From Acidobacteriota bacterium (GTDB taxonomy: Bacteria; Acidobacteriota; UBA6911; RPQK01; JAJDTT01), in the NCBI GenBank assembly GCA_965263035.1, contig OZ253580.1, positions 480,001-544,000 of the forward strand: a stretch of 64,000 nt of DNA, given 5' to 3'. The position numbers and the translations under genes are program-made. The first letter of the stretch is position 1. Each line of letters begins with the position of its first letter. Of this stretch, positions 20,859 to 51,335 are shown in pieces. The notes below the pieces were generated by a model. The model was not told the origin of the DNA. It saw only the letters and a list, made by a program, of their open reading frames with translations, and did no database searches.

Positions 20859-20934
20859 TGGTGGAGCTGATGGGATTCGAACCCACGACCCCCTGAATGC
20901 CATTCAGGTACTCTTCCAACTGAGCTACAGCCCC
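20859..20934 (-). tRNA. tRNA-Ala (GGC)
   Basis: Reverse complement GGGGCTGTAGCTCAGTTGGAAGAGTACCTGAATGGCATTCAGGGGGTCGTGGGTTCGAATCCCATCAGCTCCACCA: 76 nt, anticodon GGC, TTCGA loop, encoded CCA. Confidence 0.97.
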
Positions 20935-26546: not shown

Positions 26547-27902
26547 ATGAGCCAGCCGGTTTCCGGCCCCCTGTTGCTTCAGGACCCCGCCTACGACTAT
26601 CCGGTGGTGGAAAGAGGCGAGGGAATCTACGTCTACGACGGCGCCGGCAAGCGTTTCATCGACGGCACCGCCGGAGCCGGCAACGTCATTCTGGGCCACG
26701 GACGCCGGCGGATCGCCCGGATCATGGCCCGCCAGGCCGAGACGCTGGCCTTCGTCTTCACTTCTCATTTCACCAATCCGGTGGCCGCCGAGCTGGCCGG
26801 ACGGCTGGCGGAAAAGGCGCCGGGCCAGCTGAATCATGTCTATTTCGTCTCCGGCGGCTCGGAAGGAGTCGAGACCGCGTTGAAACTGGCACGGCTCTAC
26901 CACCTGCGGCGGGGCCAGGGCCAGAAACATCAGGTCATCGCCCGTTGGAGCAGCTATCACGGAGCCACGCTGGGCGCGCTCTCGACCACCGGATCCGGAG
27001 TCCGGCACGCCTTCAGTCCCTGGCTGGCCGGGTTCGAGCACATCGACCCCTGCCTGCCACGGGCGTGTCTCTTCGACGGATGCGGGGAATCCTGCACGCT
27101 GGCCTGCGCGCGCGAGCTGGAACGGGCCATCATCCGGGCCGGACCGGAGAACGTGGCGGCCTTCGTGGCCGAACCCGTCTCCATGGCCGGCGGTGCCCCA
27201 GCCATTCCGCCGGCCGACTACTTCCCTCGGATACGGGAGATCTGCGACCGCTACGGCGTGCTCTGGATCGCCGACGAAGTGGTGACCGGATTCGGCCGGA
27301 CGGGGCGTTTCTTCGCCATCCAGCACTGGGATGCGGTTCCCGATATCGTGGCCTTCGGCAAAGGCGTCAGCAGCGGCTACCTCCCCATGGGGGGCGCACT
27401 GTTCACCGATGAGATCCGGCACGTGTTGGAAGCCAAGAAAGATGCCCTTCCCCACGTCTTCACCTACGTGAACAACCCTCTCGCCGCCCGGGTCGGGCTC
27501 ACCGTCCTGGACCTGATGGAAGAAGAGAGCATCGTGGAGAGATCGGCCGCCATGGGGGACTACCTGCTGGAGCGAGTCCGGACCCTGCGCAGCCATTCCA
27601 TGGTGGGCGACGTCCGGGGCCTGGGAATGCTGGTGGGGTTCGAACTGGTGAGCTCCCGCAAGCCCTACACCTACTTCCCCCCTAATCTGAAGGTCCATGA
27701 GCGATTGCACCGGCATCTGATCCGCCGGGGACTCTCCATCTCCGCGACGGGAGGTCCCGGCGACGGGAGCCCGGGGGACAGCGTCCGCATCTTCCCCCCC
27801 CTGGCCATCACCCGGGCGGAGATCGACGAAATCGTAGAGATGTTGGACGAGGCGCTCACGGCAGTGCGGCGCCAGATCGAGAGGGTAATGAGGCATGCGT
27901 GA
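26547..27902 (+). CDS. Class III PLP-dependent aminotransferase
   Basis: SGGSEGVETALK, SYHGAT, IADEVVTGFGRTG and FGKGVSSGYLP. Confidence 0.93.
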   Translation: MSQPVSGPLLLQDPAYDYPVVERGEGIYVYDGAGKRFIDGTAGAGNVILGHGRRRIARIMARQAETLAFVFTSHFTNPVAAELAGRLAEKAPGQLNHVYFVSGGSEGVETALKLARLYHLRRGQGQKHQVIARWSSYHGATLGALSTTGSGVRHAFSPWLAGFEHIDPCLPRACLFDGCGESCTLACARELERAIIRAGPENVAAFVAEPVSMAGGAPAIPPADYFPRIREICDRYGVLWIADEVVTGFGRTGRFFAIQHWDAVPDIVAFGKGVSSGYLPMGGALFTDEIRHVLEAKKDALPHVFTYVNNPLAARVGLTVLDLMEEESIVERSAAMGDYLLERVRTLRSHSMVGDVRGLGMLVGFELVSSRKPYTYFPPNLKVHERLHRHLIRRGLSISATGGPGDGSPGDSVRIFPPLAITRAEIDEIVEMLDEALTAVRRQIERVMRHA

Positions 27903-28167
27903 GAGAGACTTCTACCGGGAACGGCGTGAGACCAAGACGGCTCGGCTCTCCTGTCCCCACTGCCGGGAACCGGGCGACTTCCAGGTCCGATGGCTGGTGC
28001 GGGAGAAAAAGGGCCGTCTGCCCCATCGCACCAACACCGAGGACCGGCGCCGATTCACCAACCTCCGCTCCTACATGGTCCGGGAAGACGAGTACCTCTT
28101 CTGTCCCAACCCCAGGTGCCGCAGACGCTTCGAAATCCCGAGCCAGCAGTCGGTCGTGCTCCTGTAG
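27895..28167 (+). CDS. Small basic Zn-ribbon-like conserved hypothetical protein
   Basis: CPHC...CPNPRC; overlaps the aminotransferase stop; its own stop abuts the intron 3' end. Confidence 0.7.
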   Translation: MRERDFYRERRETKTARLSCPHCREPGDFQVRWLVREKKGRLPHRTNTEDRRRFTNLRSYMVREDEYLFCPNPRCRRRFEIPSQQSVVLL

Positions 28168-28797
28168 ATCGGGTCGGGCGCAGGGGATTGCGCCCCCGCA
28201 CCCTCCCACACCACCGGACGTACCGTTTTCAGTATCCGGCGGTTGGAGTCACCCGAGGCTCTTTCGAGCCTCGTACAGGGCCTTTCTTTCCGGTTTCCGC
28301 CGCCGCTGAGACTTGATCTCCGCCCTTCCGGCTTGCCGGGCTCCACCCGTGGGCCTTCCATGCCGGGTCCGAGGGGCCTCCCCCCGCCCCGTTTTCGGAG
28401 GTAGTTGCGATCCCGCTGACGAGTCCACCATAGGGCCAGTCCGACTCCTTCGGTCCTTCGCTCCACCGGCATTACCCGGCTTCTTCGCTACTACGACCTC
28501 TGCTGACTTCTCAAGGGCTCTCACCCTTGAGATCTCCCCGAGTAAGGTGCTGCATCTTTCCCCCCGGGCCGCCCGGCTCTACCTGATGCGTCTGGATGGG
28601 GTTCGGGTTTCGCTGTTGCTCGCCAGCTCACCGCCCGCACCCGGCCTCACTGCCGGTTCGTGTTCCTGCGGTCGTGGGTTTGCCTTCCGCTTCCTTCAGC
28701 TTCACCTCGCGGCTACGCCTTGCGGTTCGGCTAGGGTTGGTCCCATCACCTCCCTTGGGATCTTTCATCCCTTAGATACAGCCCATGTCGGGCGCAC
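28168..28797 (-). mobile_element. ORF-less class IIC group II intron (630 nt), likely non-autonomous
   Basis: Starts GTGCGCCCGACATGG and ends CCCGAT; domain V ACCGCCGGATACTGAAAACGGTACGTCCGGTGGT; ribozyme core nearly identical to 49488..51335; RT ORF absent. Confidence 0.92.
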
Positions 28798-28930
28798 GAG
28801 CGGCGACTTTCTTGTCGCCGAACAGGGGGGAAAGGGGGACGGAGTCCCCACTCTACACTTTCCGGCAAGAAGAGCAGGCGGCAAGAAAGCCGCCTGTCCC
28901 AGTGGGCGACAAGAAAGTCGCCCCTCCCAG
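28798..28930 (-). repeat. Composite REP-like element forming the intron 5' exon
   Basis: Three GGCG(A/G)C-N6-G(T/C)CGCC hairpins (loop AAGAAA or its complement) plus a GGGGAC-N3-GTCCCC hairpin. Confidence 0.8.
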
Positions 28931-29013
28931 CCGAAAACACTCTTGCACCGCCAACCCGGAACGAATAGCATCTCCACTGCTTTTCTTCCGGTAAGCGTAC
29001 CGAAAGGATCGAC

Positions 29014-30624
29014 ATGCAACTGCACTTCGCCGATCACATGGTCCTGGTGGCCTACCTGGGAGCCATGATGTTTCTGGGTTGGCGGCTCTCCCGGGGCCAG
29101 ACGACCGGTGAGGAGTACTTCCTGGGTGGGCGGCGGCTTCCCTGGTTCGCCGTGGGCATAAGCATCATCGCCTCCCTGCTCTCCAGCATCAGTTTCCTGG
29201 CCTATCCCGGCGTGGTCTGGCGTTTCGGCTTCGGAAACCTGGTGAGCACCTTCCTCGGTTTTCCCATCCACGTGGCCTTCATCCTGCTGCTGACCATTCC
29301 CTTCTTCGTCCGCTTCCGCTTCACCACCGCTTACGAGTACCTGGAACACCGGTACGGCCTCTCGGCGAGGCTCCTGGGAGCCTCCATGTTCCTGGTGTTC
29401 GTGTCGGTTCTGATGATGGTGATCGTCCTGGTCTCTTCCCGGGCCCTGGCCGTGGCCACAGGCATCCCTCTGATCGTCATCATCCTCACCGTCGGCGTCG
29501 TGGCCACGGTCTACACCATGATGGGCGGGATTCGGGCCGTGGTGTGGACCGACGTGATCCAGGTGGCGCTGCTTCTGGGCGGCGGATTTTTCACCATCGG
29601 CTACGTGGCCTGGGCCACCGGCTCCAACCTTTGGGATTGGATGGAGGTGGTCAACCTCCGAGACAACGAGAGCTTCACCTTCTTCTCGCCCGACCCGACC
29701 CTGCCGGCGACGGTGGTCACCTTCACCTTGACCGACGCGCTCTGGATCGTCGTCGCCCACTGCGCCAACCAGATGACCATGCAGCGTTACTTCAGCACCG
29801 TGGACGTCGCGGCCAGCAAGCGGAGCATGGTGACCGGAGCGGTCACCGGAATCATCATCATCCTGGTCCTCACCATCGTGGGCGCCAGCCTGGTCTACTA
29901 CTTCACCCAGGGACCCGAGCCCCTTCCCGGTCACATCGACCTGGCCAACGGCAAGGACCGGGACAGCATCTTCCCCTTCTTCGTAGCCTCCCGAGTCCCG
30001 CCCGGCCTGGCCGGCGCCATCTTCGCCGCGCTGCTGGCGGCCGCCATGTCCACCATCGACTCGGGGGTGAACTCCTTTGCCACGGTGGCCACCGTGGATT
30101 TCGGACGCCTGCGCAAGAAGAAAAAACCCGTGGACCAGGTCCACCAGGCCCGCATCATCACCCTGGTGGTGGGCTTGGCAGTGACGTTGGGAGCCTTCTT
30201 CCTGGACAACCTCACCGGCGCCGACGACATCCTGACCATCCTGCCCAAGACCTTCAACTCGCTGGTGGGTCCCATGGGCGGGCTCTTTCTGGCCGGGATG
30301 CTCCTGCCCCGCGCCGGCCGGAGAACCGTCTGGCCGGCGGCCATCATCGGCTTCCTGACGGCCCTCGGGGTCGCTTATTCCCAGCCCCTGCTCCAGTCTC
30401 TCAGCCCCGCGGCCCAGCAGACACTGGTGTCGCTGCTGGGAGAGAACTTCGGCCCGCGGCTGATCGAGAAGGGGATGGGTTTCACCTGGATCATGCCCTC
30501 CTCCTTCGCCGCCAGCTTCGGCACGGCCTGGATCCTGAGCCTGATCTTCCCCAACCGGAACCAGGACCGCCTGGCCGGACTGACCTGGAAGACCCGCCAC
30601 GAGAAGACCTGGCTGGCCTCGTGA
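29014..30624 (+). CDS. Sodium:solute symporter (SSS family)
   Basis: EYFLGGRRLPW, TAYEYLEHRYG, GGIRAVVWTDVIQ and AAAMSTIDSG; many transmembrane segments. Confidence 0.92.
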   Translation: MQLHFADHMVLVAYLGAMMFLGWRLSRGQTTGEEYFLGGRRLPWFAVGISIIASLLSSISFLAYPGVVWRFGFGNLVSTFLGFPIHVAFILLLTIPFFVRFRFTTAYEYLEHRYGLSARLLGASMFLVFVSVLMMVIVLVSSRALAVATGIPLIVIILTVGVVATVYTMMGGIRAVVWTDVIQVALLLGGGFFTIGYVAWATGSNLWDWMEVVNLRDNESFTFFSPDPTLPATVVTFTLTDALWIVVAHCANQMTMQRYFSTVDVAASKRSMVTGAVTGIIIILVLTIVGASLVYYFTQGPEPLPGHIDLANGKDRDSIFPFFVASRVPPGLAGAIFAALLAAAMSTIDSGVNSFATVATVDFGRLRKKKKPVDQVHQARIITLVVGLAVTLGAFFLDNLTGADDILTILPKTFNSLVGPMGGLFLAGMLLPRAGRRTVWPAAIIGFLTALGVAYSQPLLQSLSPAAQQTLVSLLGENFGPRLIEKGMGFTWIMPSSFAASFGTAWILSLIFPNRNQDRLAGLTWKTRHEKTWLAS

Positions 30625-49487: not shown

Positions 49488-51335
49488 ATCGGGTCGGGCG
49501 CAGGGGATTGCGCCCCTGCACCCTCCCACACCACCGGACGTACCGTTTTCAGTATCCGGCGGTTGGAGTCACCCGAGGTCCGATGGAATGAGGAACCCAT
49601 AGCGGCGCAGACGGCGGTTGCTCAGGGCCGTGTGCAGCGCTGAGTGCCGGGCGATTCGCCAGCTTCCTCGACTGCTGTGGGCCACTCGAAGCAGCGGCTC
49701 ACGCACCCCCAGAGACCGCAGTCGCCGGAGACGCCCTCGCCAACCATGCCAGCGCAACCAGAAGCATTTGCGCATGTGGCGCCGGATCCAGCCTTCCAAC
49801 CTCCAGACCGGACGCCGCCATTCCGCCAGCCGGTAGTATCCCCACCAGCCTCGGATGTGCTGCCGCCATTGGTCTCTCAGTCCCAGGCTGCTGAGGTTCT
49901 GTCGGGCGTCCCAGAGTTGGCGCACCCGTAACTTCAGCCGCTTCAGGCTCTCCGGGGCCACTTCGATCTGCCCCTTCCGGGTGATCCGGAACCCCAGGAG
50001 CTTCCGCTCCCAGGGCCGGCCCACTCCAGTCTTGCGCGCGTTCACCTTCAACCGCAGATGCTTCGCGATCCACTGCGGCAGGTTCCGGACCACTCGATCC
50101 GCCGCGGTCGCTCCCCCTACGTAGACGTTACAGTCGTCCGCGTAGCGTACGAAGCAGTACCCGCGTCTCTCCAGTTCTTTGTCCAGCGGGTCCAGGTAGA
50201 GGTTCGCCAGCAGCGGGGAGAGCGGTCCGCCTTGCGGCGTCCCCTCCCGGGCTCCCACCACCACGCCTTCCACCAGAACCCCGCTGCGCAGGTACCGGCC
50301 AATCAGTTTCAGCACCCGTTTGTCCCGGATGACGGCCCCGATTCGCCGCATCATGATGTCGTGATGCACCCGGTCAAAGAACTTCTCGATGTCCAGATCG
50401 ACGACCCAGTCCCGGCCTCCCCGGACCACGTACTCCCGTGCCGCTCTCACGGCATCGTGAGTGCTGCGTCCCGGTCGGAACCCGTAGCTGTGCTCGCTGA
50501 ACCCCGGTTCGAAGATCCGCCCCAGCTCCTGCAACAGCAGTTGCTGGATGAATCGATCCAGCACCGTGGGGATCCCCAGGCAGCGGACCCCACCGTTCGG
50601 TTTCGGGATTTCCACCCGCCTCACTGGGGTCACCGCGTAGGTCCCGTCCAGCAACTTGCCACGGATTCGCGGCCAGTGCTTCTGAAGGTGTCCCTCCAGT
50701 TCGGTGGTCTTCATGCCGTCCATCCCCGGCGCCCCCCGGTTGCGGAGTACCGCTCCCAAGGCCGCCCCGTAGTTGTCCGCCGAGACCACCTGTTCCATCA
50801 GCGACTCGTACCTCTCCCTTCTTTCCGGGTCTTCGCCGCCACCGAGACTCGATCTCCGCCCTTCCGGCTTGACGGGTTCCACCCTTGGGCCTTCCGGACC
50901 AGGGCCAGAGGATCTCTCCCCGGCTCCCGTCTTCGGAGTTCTTGGCGCCTCCATTGGCGAGTCCTCCATAAGGTCGGTACGACTCCTTCGGTCCTTCGCT
51001 CCACCGGCTCTACCCGGCTTCTTCGCTACTACGACCTCTGCTGACTTCTCAAGGGCTCTCACCCTTGAGATCTCCCCGAGTAAGGTGCTGCATCTTTCCC
51101 CCCGGGCCGCCCGGCTCTACCTGATGCGTCTGGATGGGGTTCGGGTTTCGCTGTTGCTCGCCAGCTCACCGCCCGCACCCGGCCTCACTGCCGGTTCGTG
51201 TTCCTGCGGTCGTGGGTTTGCCTTCCGCTTCCTTCAGCTTCACCTCGCGGCTACGCCTTGCGGTTCGGCTAGGGTTGGTCCCATCACCTCCCTTGGGATC
51301 TTTCATCCCTTAGATACAGCCCATGTCGGGCGCAC
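49488..51335 (-). mobile_element. Full-length class IIC group II intron (1848 nt)
   Basis: 5' GTGCGCCCGACATGG; short domain V with CGC triad; domain VI ending GACCCGAT; inserted 4 nt after a hairpin; encodes an RT with no endonuclease domain. Confidence 0.93.
49569..50969 (-). CDS. ltrA: Group II intron reverse transcriptase/maturase
   Basis: NRGAPGMDG, IPKPNGGVRCLGIPTVLDR, SYGFRPGRS, GTPQGGPLSPLLAN, RYADD and GWWGYY; start codon uncertain. Confidence 0.95.
   Translation of the reverse strand: MEDSPMEAPRTPKTGAGERSSGPGPEGPRVEPVKPEGRRSSLGGGEDPERRERYESLMEQVVSADNYGAALGAVLRNRGAPGMDGMKTTELEGHLQKHWPRIRGKLLDGTYAVTPVRRVEIPKPNGGVRCLGIPTVLDRFIQQLLLQELGRIFEPGFSEHSYGFRPGRSTHDAVRAAREYVVRGGRDWVVDLDIEKFFDRVHHDIMMRRIGAVIRDKRVLKLIGRYLRSGVLVEGVVVGAREGTPQGGPLSPLLANLYLDPLDKELERRGYCFVRYADDCNVYVGGATAADRVVRNLPQWIAKHLRLKVNARKTGVGRPWERKLLGFRITRKGQIEVAPESLKRLKLRVRQLWDARQNLSSLGLRDQWRQHIRGWWGYYRLAEWRRPVWRLEGWIRRHMRKCFWLRWHGWRGRLRRLRSLGVREPLLRVAHSSRGSWRIARHSALHTALSNRRLRRYGFLIPSDLG

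Follow-up and report, generated by a model that had tools for sequence, protein, structure and literature searches.

RESULTS

An ORF-less class C intron in the window

The 64,000-nt stretch of DNA that we analyzed, here called the window, carries a short class C (IIC) group II intron that lacks an open reading frame (ORF), together with a full-length intron of the same class that is the presumed donor of its reverse transcriptase (RT). The features referred to below are the following, in window coordinates.

28168..28797, minus strand: ORF-less class C (IIC) group II intron, 630 nt (Rfam matches and sequence)
28549..28716, minus strand: domain I core (Rfam group-II-D1D4-3; 85.5 bits, E = 1.1e-15, full model length)
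28453..28546, minus strand: distal domain I to domain II junction region (group-II-D1D4-1; 45.3 bits)
28612..28627, minus strand: domain I hairpin with EBS1 (GAGC) as its loop, intron nt 171-186 (predicted stem, helix 15, and covariation)
28254..28273, minus strand: domain IV, 8-bp stem with GAAA loop, the ORF-deletion junction (predicted -12.7 kcal/mol; invariant in 22 copies)
28210..28243, minus strand: domain V, 34 nt (within RF00029; helix 33)
28171..28207, minus strand: domain VI (consensus fold, helix 34)
28798..28801, minus strand: IBS1 GCTC, last four bases of the 5' exon (19/19 uninterrupted copies)
28802..28819, minus strand: target stem-loop GGCGAC-AAGAAA-GTCGCC, a REP-like repeat in the 5' exon (sequence)
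28167, minus strand: first base of the 3' exon, presumed IBS3 (C in 18/19 copies, T in 1/19)
49488..51335, minus strand: full-length class C intron, 1,848 nt, presumed RT donor (sequence and genome BLAST)
49572..50798, minus strand: RT/maturase ORF, 409 aa, without an endonuclease domain (RVT_1 and GIIM)
20862-20934, minus strand: tRNA gene (Rfam RF00005, 65.2 bits)

Read on the minus strand, the short intron begins with GTGCG at 28797 and ends with ...GACCCGAT at 28168. The corresponding RNA ends, 5' GUGCG and 3' ...GACCCGAU (ending in CCCGAU), agree with the group II boundary consensus (5' GUGYG, 3' AY type), and the uninterrupted copies elsewhere in the genome start in the same way (GTGCG in 18/19, GTACG in 1/19). 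Within 28168-28797, also on the minus strand, the domain I architecture was matched by group-II-D1D4-3 (RF02001, 85.5 bits) and group-II-D1D4-1 (RF01998, 45.3 bits; cut-off 35 bits), while domains V and VI were matched by Intron_gpII (RF00029) at 40.3 bits. The last match is borderline, in that the cut-off of this model is 40 bits, 7 of its 35 matches in the genome lie above it, and most short copies score 38.1 to 39.4 bits. All 14 predicted pairs of domain V are invariant among 17 sequences, and five pairs of domain VI vary on one side only, between G-C or A-U and G-U. In the predicted fold, the A at window position 28174 (intron nt 624, the seventh base from the 3' end) is unpaired and presumably serves as the branch point. 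The original prediction that the splice boundaries and group II domains are preserved was thus borne out by the sequence ends, the Rfam matches, and the predicted domains V and VI. In its anatomy, the short element is a complete ribozyme: domains I to III, V, and VI are all there, and domain IV is a minimal hairpin.

Both neighboring genes run antisense to the window copy, and base 28167 is, on the plus strand, the last base of the TAG stop codon of one of them. A promoter scan of 27800-29300 found no promoter-like site upstream of the intron.

The full-length relative and its RT

The full-length intron was present as originally described, although its extent had to be mended to 1,848 nt (window 49488-51335). 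It is matched, at about 51 kb, by the same two domain I models as the short intron, and it has a twin at genome positions 2572796-2574643; the two full copies are 99.8% identical. The 409-aa ORF matches TIGR04416 with 363 bits. Among solved structures, its best relative is the GsI-IIC RT (6ar1; E = 1.6e-133), followed by a second IIC protein, that of 7uim (E = 2.6e-101). Lower matches are LtrA (8.5e-35) and the protein of 6me0 (1.2e-30), which we take to be non-IIC proteins. By sequence similarity, the resident protein is best classified as a class C RT/maturase without an endonuclease domain.

In a family search of the genome, just two RT genes were of class C, and the frames of both are open. 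We infer, in line with the original prediction, that the short element borrows the RT at 49.6-51.0 kb; this RT and its twin are the only class C RTs of the genome. A congener (G001; single contig, 99% complete) carries one ORF-less IIC copy; a search of that genome with the query RT recovered no class C RT, its sole match being an RT of 36% identity. The contrast between this genome and G001 in RT supply is suggestive only, with one genome on each side. The G001 copy itself (648 nt, C1:4991714-4992361, locus L002) may be an orphan intron without a helper.

Other group II introns in the genome

The genome contains a second RT-coding group II family, with open frames at 983769-984869, 5537513-5538613, and 5842098-5843198 and a split member at 5053504-5056830. 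Its protein matches TIGR04416 with 317 bits, and its domain V/VI region reaches only 31 bits on RF00029. Another group II family without an ORF, the second of its kind in the genome, has seven copies of about 660 nt that are 91 to 99% identical and are recognized by group-II-D1D4-6 at 165 bits (example, locus L114). These copies lie at 2436403-2437067, 3066863-3067527, 6114876-6115539, 2482147-2482813, 3351617-3352274, 3743271-3743965, and 680748-681405 (G000:C1). Most of them are flanked as GGCGAC-T, intron, TTCTT-GTCGCC, and they therefore sit inside the loop of the same hairpin that precedes the IIC copies, on the opposite strand to the IIC family. No RT match was found near them, and BLAST recovered no full-length partner in this genome. 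Finally, the best RF00029 match of the genome (52 bits) is at 340877-340952 (locus L115, 178-253). No RT match was reported near it, so this may be another ORF-less or fragmentary intron.

It is possible in principle that the element is mobile and that its RT comes from the second RT-coding family (genome 983769, 5537513, 5842098) or from outside the genome, since three further open group II RT genes are present, and the second ORF-less family also lacks an obvious partner, so that cross-service may be common. We regard this as improbable. The alternative RT type is only 36 to 37% identical to the class C RT (congeners where aligned), and the nucleotide similarity of its introns to the short element is confined to a 41-nt motif. 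Group II RTs co-evolve with their own ribozymes, as described in the literature (PMC12584367, PMC10190682), and domains I, V, and VI are common to the short element and the class C copies. The class C RT in trans is our preferred source.

Copies of the short element

A BLAST search of the 6.2-Mb genome recovered 19 uninterrupted short copies of 630 to 632 nt (96.9 to 100% identity), three further short copies split by insertion sequences or other elements, and the two full copies. The 19 copies represent 14 distinct sequences, one of which is common to five loci and another to two, and the short copies fall into two main subfamilies that differ at about 3% of positions. It had been proposed that mobility would gain support if the same junction turned up in several copies at separate loci. 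This is what we found: the 20-mer at the junction occurs 22 times in the genome, all 22 times within copies of the element and without variation, at 22 loci whose 3' flanks are unrelated.

The junction was also sought elsewhere. A 31-nt junction pattern had no match in JGI metagenome contigs. A 21-nt match to the hairpin in one such contig was set aside as chance because those 21 nt are the only letters that it has in common with the element.

Some copies lie in unusual surroundings. The one at genome 436206-436835 (locus L117, 1507-2136), which differs from the window copy by 1 nt, lies in antisense orientation within the 3' part of a gene for a zinc-type alcohol dehydrogenase (ADH_N, ADH_zinc_N) and cuts it near codon 294; the hairpin at this site differs from the usual repeat, yet GCTC follows it. 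Two of the split copies (3067891-3069672 and 3923464-3925242) are interrupted by the same 1.78-kb insertion sequence, which has nine full-length genome matches (at other sites or these same ones) and one more across contig ends. The third split copy (5180577-5185272) is interrupted by a 4.7-kb element with weak DnaA/IstB-like similarity.

Target rule and EBS1-IBS1 pairing

All 19 uninterrupted copies lie directly 3' of a stem-loop followed by GCTC. Insertion directly 3' of a DNA stem-loop with a short IBS1, as opposed to a long homing site, is a class C trait, and it holds in 19/19 copies. In the window, the element directly follows the hairpin GGCGACAAGAAAGTCGCC and GCTC, as the full copy also does, which upholds the view that it sits precisely in its own target site. 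The stem-loop is mostly GGCGRC-AAGAAA-GYCGCC; seven copies have a variant or another hairpin, including the one inside the zinc-dehydrogenase gene. The genome contains 170 hairpins of the form GGCGRC-AAGAAA-GYCGCC, followed by GCTC in 92 cases, by CCTC in 33, and by TGTC in 15. Seventeen of the 92 hairpins with GCTC carry an intron 5' end, and the remaining 75 are empty. A further class C feature is a stem-loop that is an intrinsic transcription terminator or an attC site; the target hairpin here belongs to the 170-repeat family and has neither a T-run nor a terminator-like call. REP-like hairpins often occur within a longer common unit (...GTGTAGAGTGGGGACTCCGTCCCC...), and several stand in tandem upstream of both window introns (28802-28950, genome-wide family).

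The loop of one domain I hairpin, GAGC (intron nt 171-186), is complementary to GCUC. Across related elements, this loop and the exon tetranucleotide covary in 9/9 cases. GAGC goes with GCTC in 4/4 (the short copy, both full copies, and a full copy in congener G004), and GAGG goes with CCTC in 5/5 (two full copies in G003 and the ORF-less copies of G001, G003, and G008). The loop and the tetranucleotide are therefore EBS1 and IBS1. These pairings show that the short element follows the recognition rule of the autonomous elements.

Empty sites and replication orientation

The orthologous site of the window copy was empty in all five congeners examined (G001-G005), where hairpin repeats, free of any intron, come after the end of the left gene's orthologue. 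The stop or last codons abut GAGC and the hairpin in G002 and G003, a sequence equal to that of the window minus the 630 nt. We also compared four public runs, as assembled contigs, over window 27900-29100. One contig from run X1 (library kind unrecorded) skips exactly 28168-28797 at a depth of 11, equal to the flank depth, and agrees with the window at every one of the 268 listed bases of the gene-side flank. An RNA run (X17) has the same skip at a depth of 3, with 24 letters on the shorter side, and in run X3 (library kind unrecorded) the skip has 13 other letters in between. Contig depth was higher over the intron than over the flanks in RNA and DNA runs alike. Because the skip may stand in DNA, we take it to reflect nearly identical strains that differ in the presence of the intron, and not to prove splicing; the X17 joint, too, may represent a site that is empty in the DNA and not a ligation of exons. 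The empty congener sites and the X1 contig show the insertion to be precise, and we regard it as recent. Taken together, the 22 loci with the same junction, the five empty congener sites, and the exact skip in X1 give good support to the original view that the element is not a decaying fragment. Open frames across insertion sites were considered and rejected as uninformative at 62% G+C: the window copy shows a 603-codon frame, although orthologues place its site between genes.

Insertions are oriented with respect to replication. The dnaA gene, at 2.87 Mb, coincides with the minimum of cumulative GC skew, whose maximum is near 5.8 Mb; for orientation counts, the terminus was placed half a chromosome from dnaA. 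The sense strand runs in the leading direction in 16 of 19 short copies (3/19 opposite; binomial P = 0.0044), as it does in both full copies and in 2/3 broken copies. Among the 92 consensus targets, the leading-to-lagging ratio is 14:3 for occupied sites and 19:56 for empty ones (Fisher P = 2e-5). The target motif overall mostly faces the opposite way to the occupied sites, and occupancy therefore depends on orientation to the fork. The finer strand logic of RNA entry and nascent-strand priming comes from older work. Such a bias would follow from entry of the RNA into whichever strand is single-stranded in lagging-strand synthesis, with the nascent strand priming the cDNA. IIC proteins that lack an endonuclease are described as using lagging strands as primers (PMC10190682).

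These data bear on whether the copies could be immobile relics that were multiplied by events at the DNA level, such as segmental duplication, recombination between hairpin repeats, or a MITE-like transposase. The 5' flank is itself repeated, which makes repeat-mediated events conceivable. However, the boundaries are the exact ribozyme splice sites in 19/19 copies, the flanks listed for the 19 copies show no target-site duplication, and the ends GTGCG and CCCGAT do not form an inverted repeat. The 3' flanks are unrelated, neither the genome BLAST nor the listed flanks placed the copies in larger duplicated blocks, orthologous sites have the hairpin without the intron, EBS1 covaries with the exon, and occupancy is tied to replication orientation. 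We consider multiplication by DNA events very improbable, and close to refuted.

The domain IV junction and the origin of the short form

The junction CGAGGCTCGAAAGAGCCTCG occupies 28273-28254 (intron nt 525-544), and domain IV reads CGAGGCTC-GAAA-GAGCCTCG. At the corresponding place, the full copy reads CGAGTCGCTGATGG...CCATCGGACCTCG. Both sequences agree with the description of an 8-bp stem with a GAAA loop at 28254-28273 that is lacking in the full copy, and with the loss of about 1.2 kb of RT sequence: 1,226 nt of the full copy (window 49579-50804), lying between CGAG and CCTCG, are replaced by 11 nt. An assembly artifact does not account for the junction, which is spanned by contigs of all four independent public runs.

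Outside the junction, similarity to the resident full copy is uneven. The short copy is 100% identical over nt 1-150 and 98.9% identical over nt 151-335, falls to 70% over nt 336-430 and 82% over nt 431-529, and returns to 98.8% over the last 86 nt. The one difference in that last stretch (85/86 the same) is the sole domain VI change that had been noted, in which an A-U pair becomes G-U (alignment columns 648:663). Because domains II and III are only 70 to 82% identical, simple deletion from the resident full copy does not explain the short copy, contrary to what the original description implied. For the same reason, the fit of the short RNA to the resident RT, as judged from sequence, is not guaranteed.

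The 648-nt ORF-less copy of G001 points to another source for the middle part. It is 91 to 93% identical to the short element there, and its 5' part is 93 to 96% identical, which is below the resident full copy. Its domain IV, CGAGGCTCTG...CAGAGCCTTG, forms a longer stem that contains both arms of the window hairpin, and these arms therefore pre-existed the deletion. Hence the suggestion that the hairpin was newly made by ORF loss in the resident full copy did not hold: the arms are already present in G001, and domains II and III come from another sub-lineage. The simplest reading of the sequences is that co-resident lineages may have exchanged segments via recombination or template switching.

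ORF-less copies in other congeners have other junctions. The junction in G003 is 43 nt long and retains the ORF's first codons, and the copy that bears it matches the full copies of G003 itself; that of G008 is 18 nt. Since these junctions differ, the ORF has been lost at least three times in the genus, with a closed domain IV hairpin left every time. Domain IV arms in the related species are about 18-19, 36, and 43 nt (one more with the closing G). In the full copy, domain IV starts with the pairings CGAG/CUCG, UC/GA, and CUGAUGG/CCAUCGG, and the start codon pairs with the ORF end; more distant relatives keep this arm with its bases changed. The short element retains the first four of these pairs and has four others, and the distal helix CUGAUGG/CCAUCGG is gone. 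Across 69 relatives, a consensus fold of the ORF's first 160 nt found no conserved hairpin (D4a) there (-5 kcal/mol, with an unfavorable covariation term). In the solved IIC particle, a long D4a hairpin is described as anchoring the maturase with high affinity and as lining the cleft for the DNA stem (PMC10190682). Judged from its sequence, the short family seems to spread without most of this anchor arm, and the loss of the D4 anchor is potentially a new feature of the family.

A more specific version of the history is possible, and we hold it only tentatively. The lineage would be a long-lived class C intron parasite that was freed from the D4a anchor, that recruits the RT by the ribozyme core alone, and that stays compatible with the autonomous intron and target motif of its host by exchanging modules. 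The element of this genome would then consist of domains I, V, and VI of the resident intron (with EBS1 GAGC in domain I, which fits the 92 GCTC sites) placed around the lineage's own domains II to IV. The same II-IV lineage would, in a congener, be combined with EBS1 GAGG and a CCTC site.

Selection on the RNA

When 17 distinct ORF-less sequences were folded together, the consensus contained 190 pairs, with 98.9% of cells paired. Seven pairs were changed on both sides, compared with 1.8 ± 1.2 in shuffles and 0 to 4 in slid controls; the structure was derived from the same alignment, which overstates this support. A more telling comparison is that of common and private variants within this genome. 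Variants common to at least two copies kept rather than broke predicted pairs by 13:1, and private variants did so by 4:8 (P = 0.003). When the structure was predicted from three other genomes only, the ratios were 11:2 and 5:7 (P = 0.04). With single-sequence folds, the contrast held for two of five references and failed for three, and it was not significant in three of seven structure models overall. Variants found in at least two copies must have passed through a transposing source, and private ones must have arisen after insertion. Some copies have private changes by which helices are broken, and these are probably dead.

Such decay could mean that the insertions were real but that the family is now a fossil, which expanded while it had a full-length parent of its own with matching domains II to IV, since lost, and which the resident RT does not help. 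No full-length intron with the short family's domains II and III was seen in the genome or among 40 relatives that were searched, the D4 arm has been cut short, and 8 of the 12 private variants at paired positions disrupt a predicted helix, all of which would suit a fossil. On the other hand, five loci carry one identical sequence, and the window copy is 1 nt from another copy. Likewise, the window site is empty in X1, whose flank contigs match without mismatch over the bases listed, and the 5' 335 nt and 3' 86 nt are 99 to 100% identical to the resident full copy, which argues for recent exchange. We therefore consider a fossil family unlikely. The short intron family has very probably been active recently, and it would depend on an RT made elsewhere.

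DISCUSSION

The reading that we favor, and consider likely, is that the short element is a non-autonomous class C group II intron retroelement that uses the RT of its full-length relatives in trans. We infer the steps of transcription, RT binding in trans, splicing, and cDNA synthesis as follows. The 630-nt element would be transcribed, and the RT/maturase of one of the two full-length relatives would bind the RNA in trans, after which the RNA would splice out. The resulting RNA-protein particle would reverse-splice into single-stranded DNA at replication forks, right after a stem-loop and GCTC, with GCTC recognized by pairing with the intron's EBS1 (GAGC). A primer from the nascent strand would then allow the DNA copy to be made.

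Bacterial introns that lack an ORF have been described as rare, mostly immobile, and usually accompanied by a related RT-coding intron (PMC4424553, PMC3245105), and a large survey reported that they are increased in certain genomes (Miura et al. 2022, PMC8919778). A close precedent is TeI3 of Thermosynechococcus elongatus, for which 17 ORF-less copies with one break-point retain DIVa and were mobilized in trans (Mohr et al. 2010, PMC2882425). Our family resembles TeI3 in having many ORF-less copies with a single deletion break-point (22/22 here) and related introns with intact RTs in the same genome (two here). In contrast, TeI3 is not a hairpin-targeting class C intron, and its proteins have an endonuclease domain and are closest to EcI5, according to the account of that system (PMC2882425). 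The family described here is IIC, targets a stem-loop plus 4 nt, is paired with an RT that lacks an endonuclease domain, has a domain IV of 8 bp and GAAA, and stands at 22 short to 2 full copies; its mobilization in trans is what we propose, whereas that of TeI3 was reported.

A second precedent is B.c.I7 of Bacillus cereus E33L, which has four copies; in three of them, all that is left of the RT ORF is its first 13 and its last 28 bp (Tourasse and Kolsto 2008, PMC2504315). As in the present genome, the ORF-less copies are nearly identical and occur beside a complete copy that could act in trans (PMC2504315). Unlike the present family, B.c.I7 is a small family on one plasmid, and the description of these copies does not report target covariation, empty sites, or a replication bias (PMC2504315). 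Non-autonomous ORF-less intron families are thus already known from TeI3 and B.c.I7, and in the literature we found no report of a IIC case. Nor did that literature yield a natural proliferating ORF-less IIC family, although the supplementary genome lists of the large survey (PMC8919778) could hold this genome or a IIC case.

Other systems touch on individual parts of the element. ORF-deleted IIC ribozymes made in the laboratory, A.v.I2 (6-bp domain IV base with a UUCG cap) and O.i.I1, are described as self-splicing in vitro (Monachello et al. 2016, PMC4748821). The short element resembles these constructs in that the domain IV base helix is closed by a stable tetraloop; the constructs were engineered and measure 474 to 486 nt, whereas the element described here is natural, 630 nt long, and multiplied in its genome. 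The resident RT best matches those of GsI-IIC (6ar1) and of the 7uim particle (Chung et al. 2022, PMC10190682), for which the IIC target is described as a DNA stem-loop, a spacer, IBS1, and IBS3 (PMC10190682). Unlike full introns of the 7uim type, the short element has neither the ORF nor most of the protein-anchoring D4 arm. In Trichodesmium erythraeum, ORF-less introns in dnaN are reported to be spliced by the RT of a related intron (PMC12584367). Those introns likewise rely on one related RT as a general maturase (PMC12584367), as we propose for the present family. They differ in residing in a housekeeping gene that depends on their splicing, whereas the copies found here are mostly intergenic and behave as transposing elements.

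The family would represent a second natural system of spread in trans beside that of T. elongatus, and it belongs to IIC, the class for which a cryo-EM particle on a DNA hairpin is available. With 22 non-autonomous and 2 autonomous copies, it has a clear target rule and 75 consensus sites that are still empty. For TeI3, smaller size has been proposed to help spread (PMC2882425). The deletions in domain IV form a natural series with which one can ask directly what length of the D4 arm a IIC RT requires for splicing and mobilizing an RNA in trans. More broadly, the family offers a small model of how introns without a protein of their own come to depend on a common factor.
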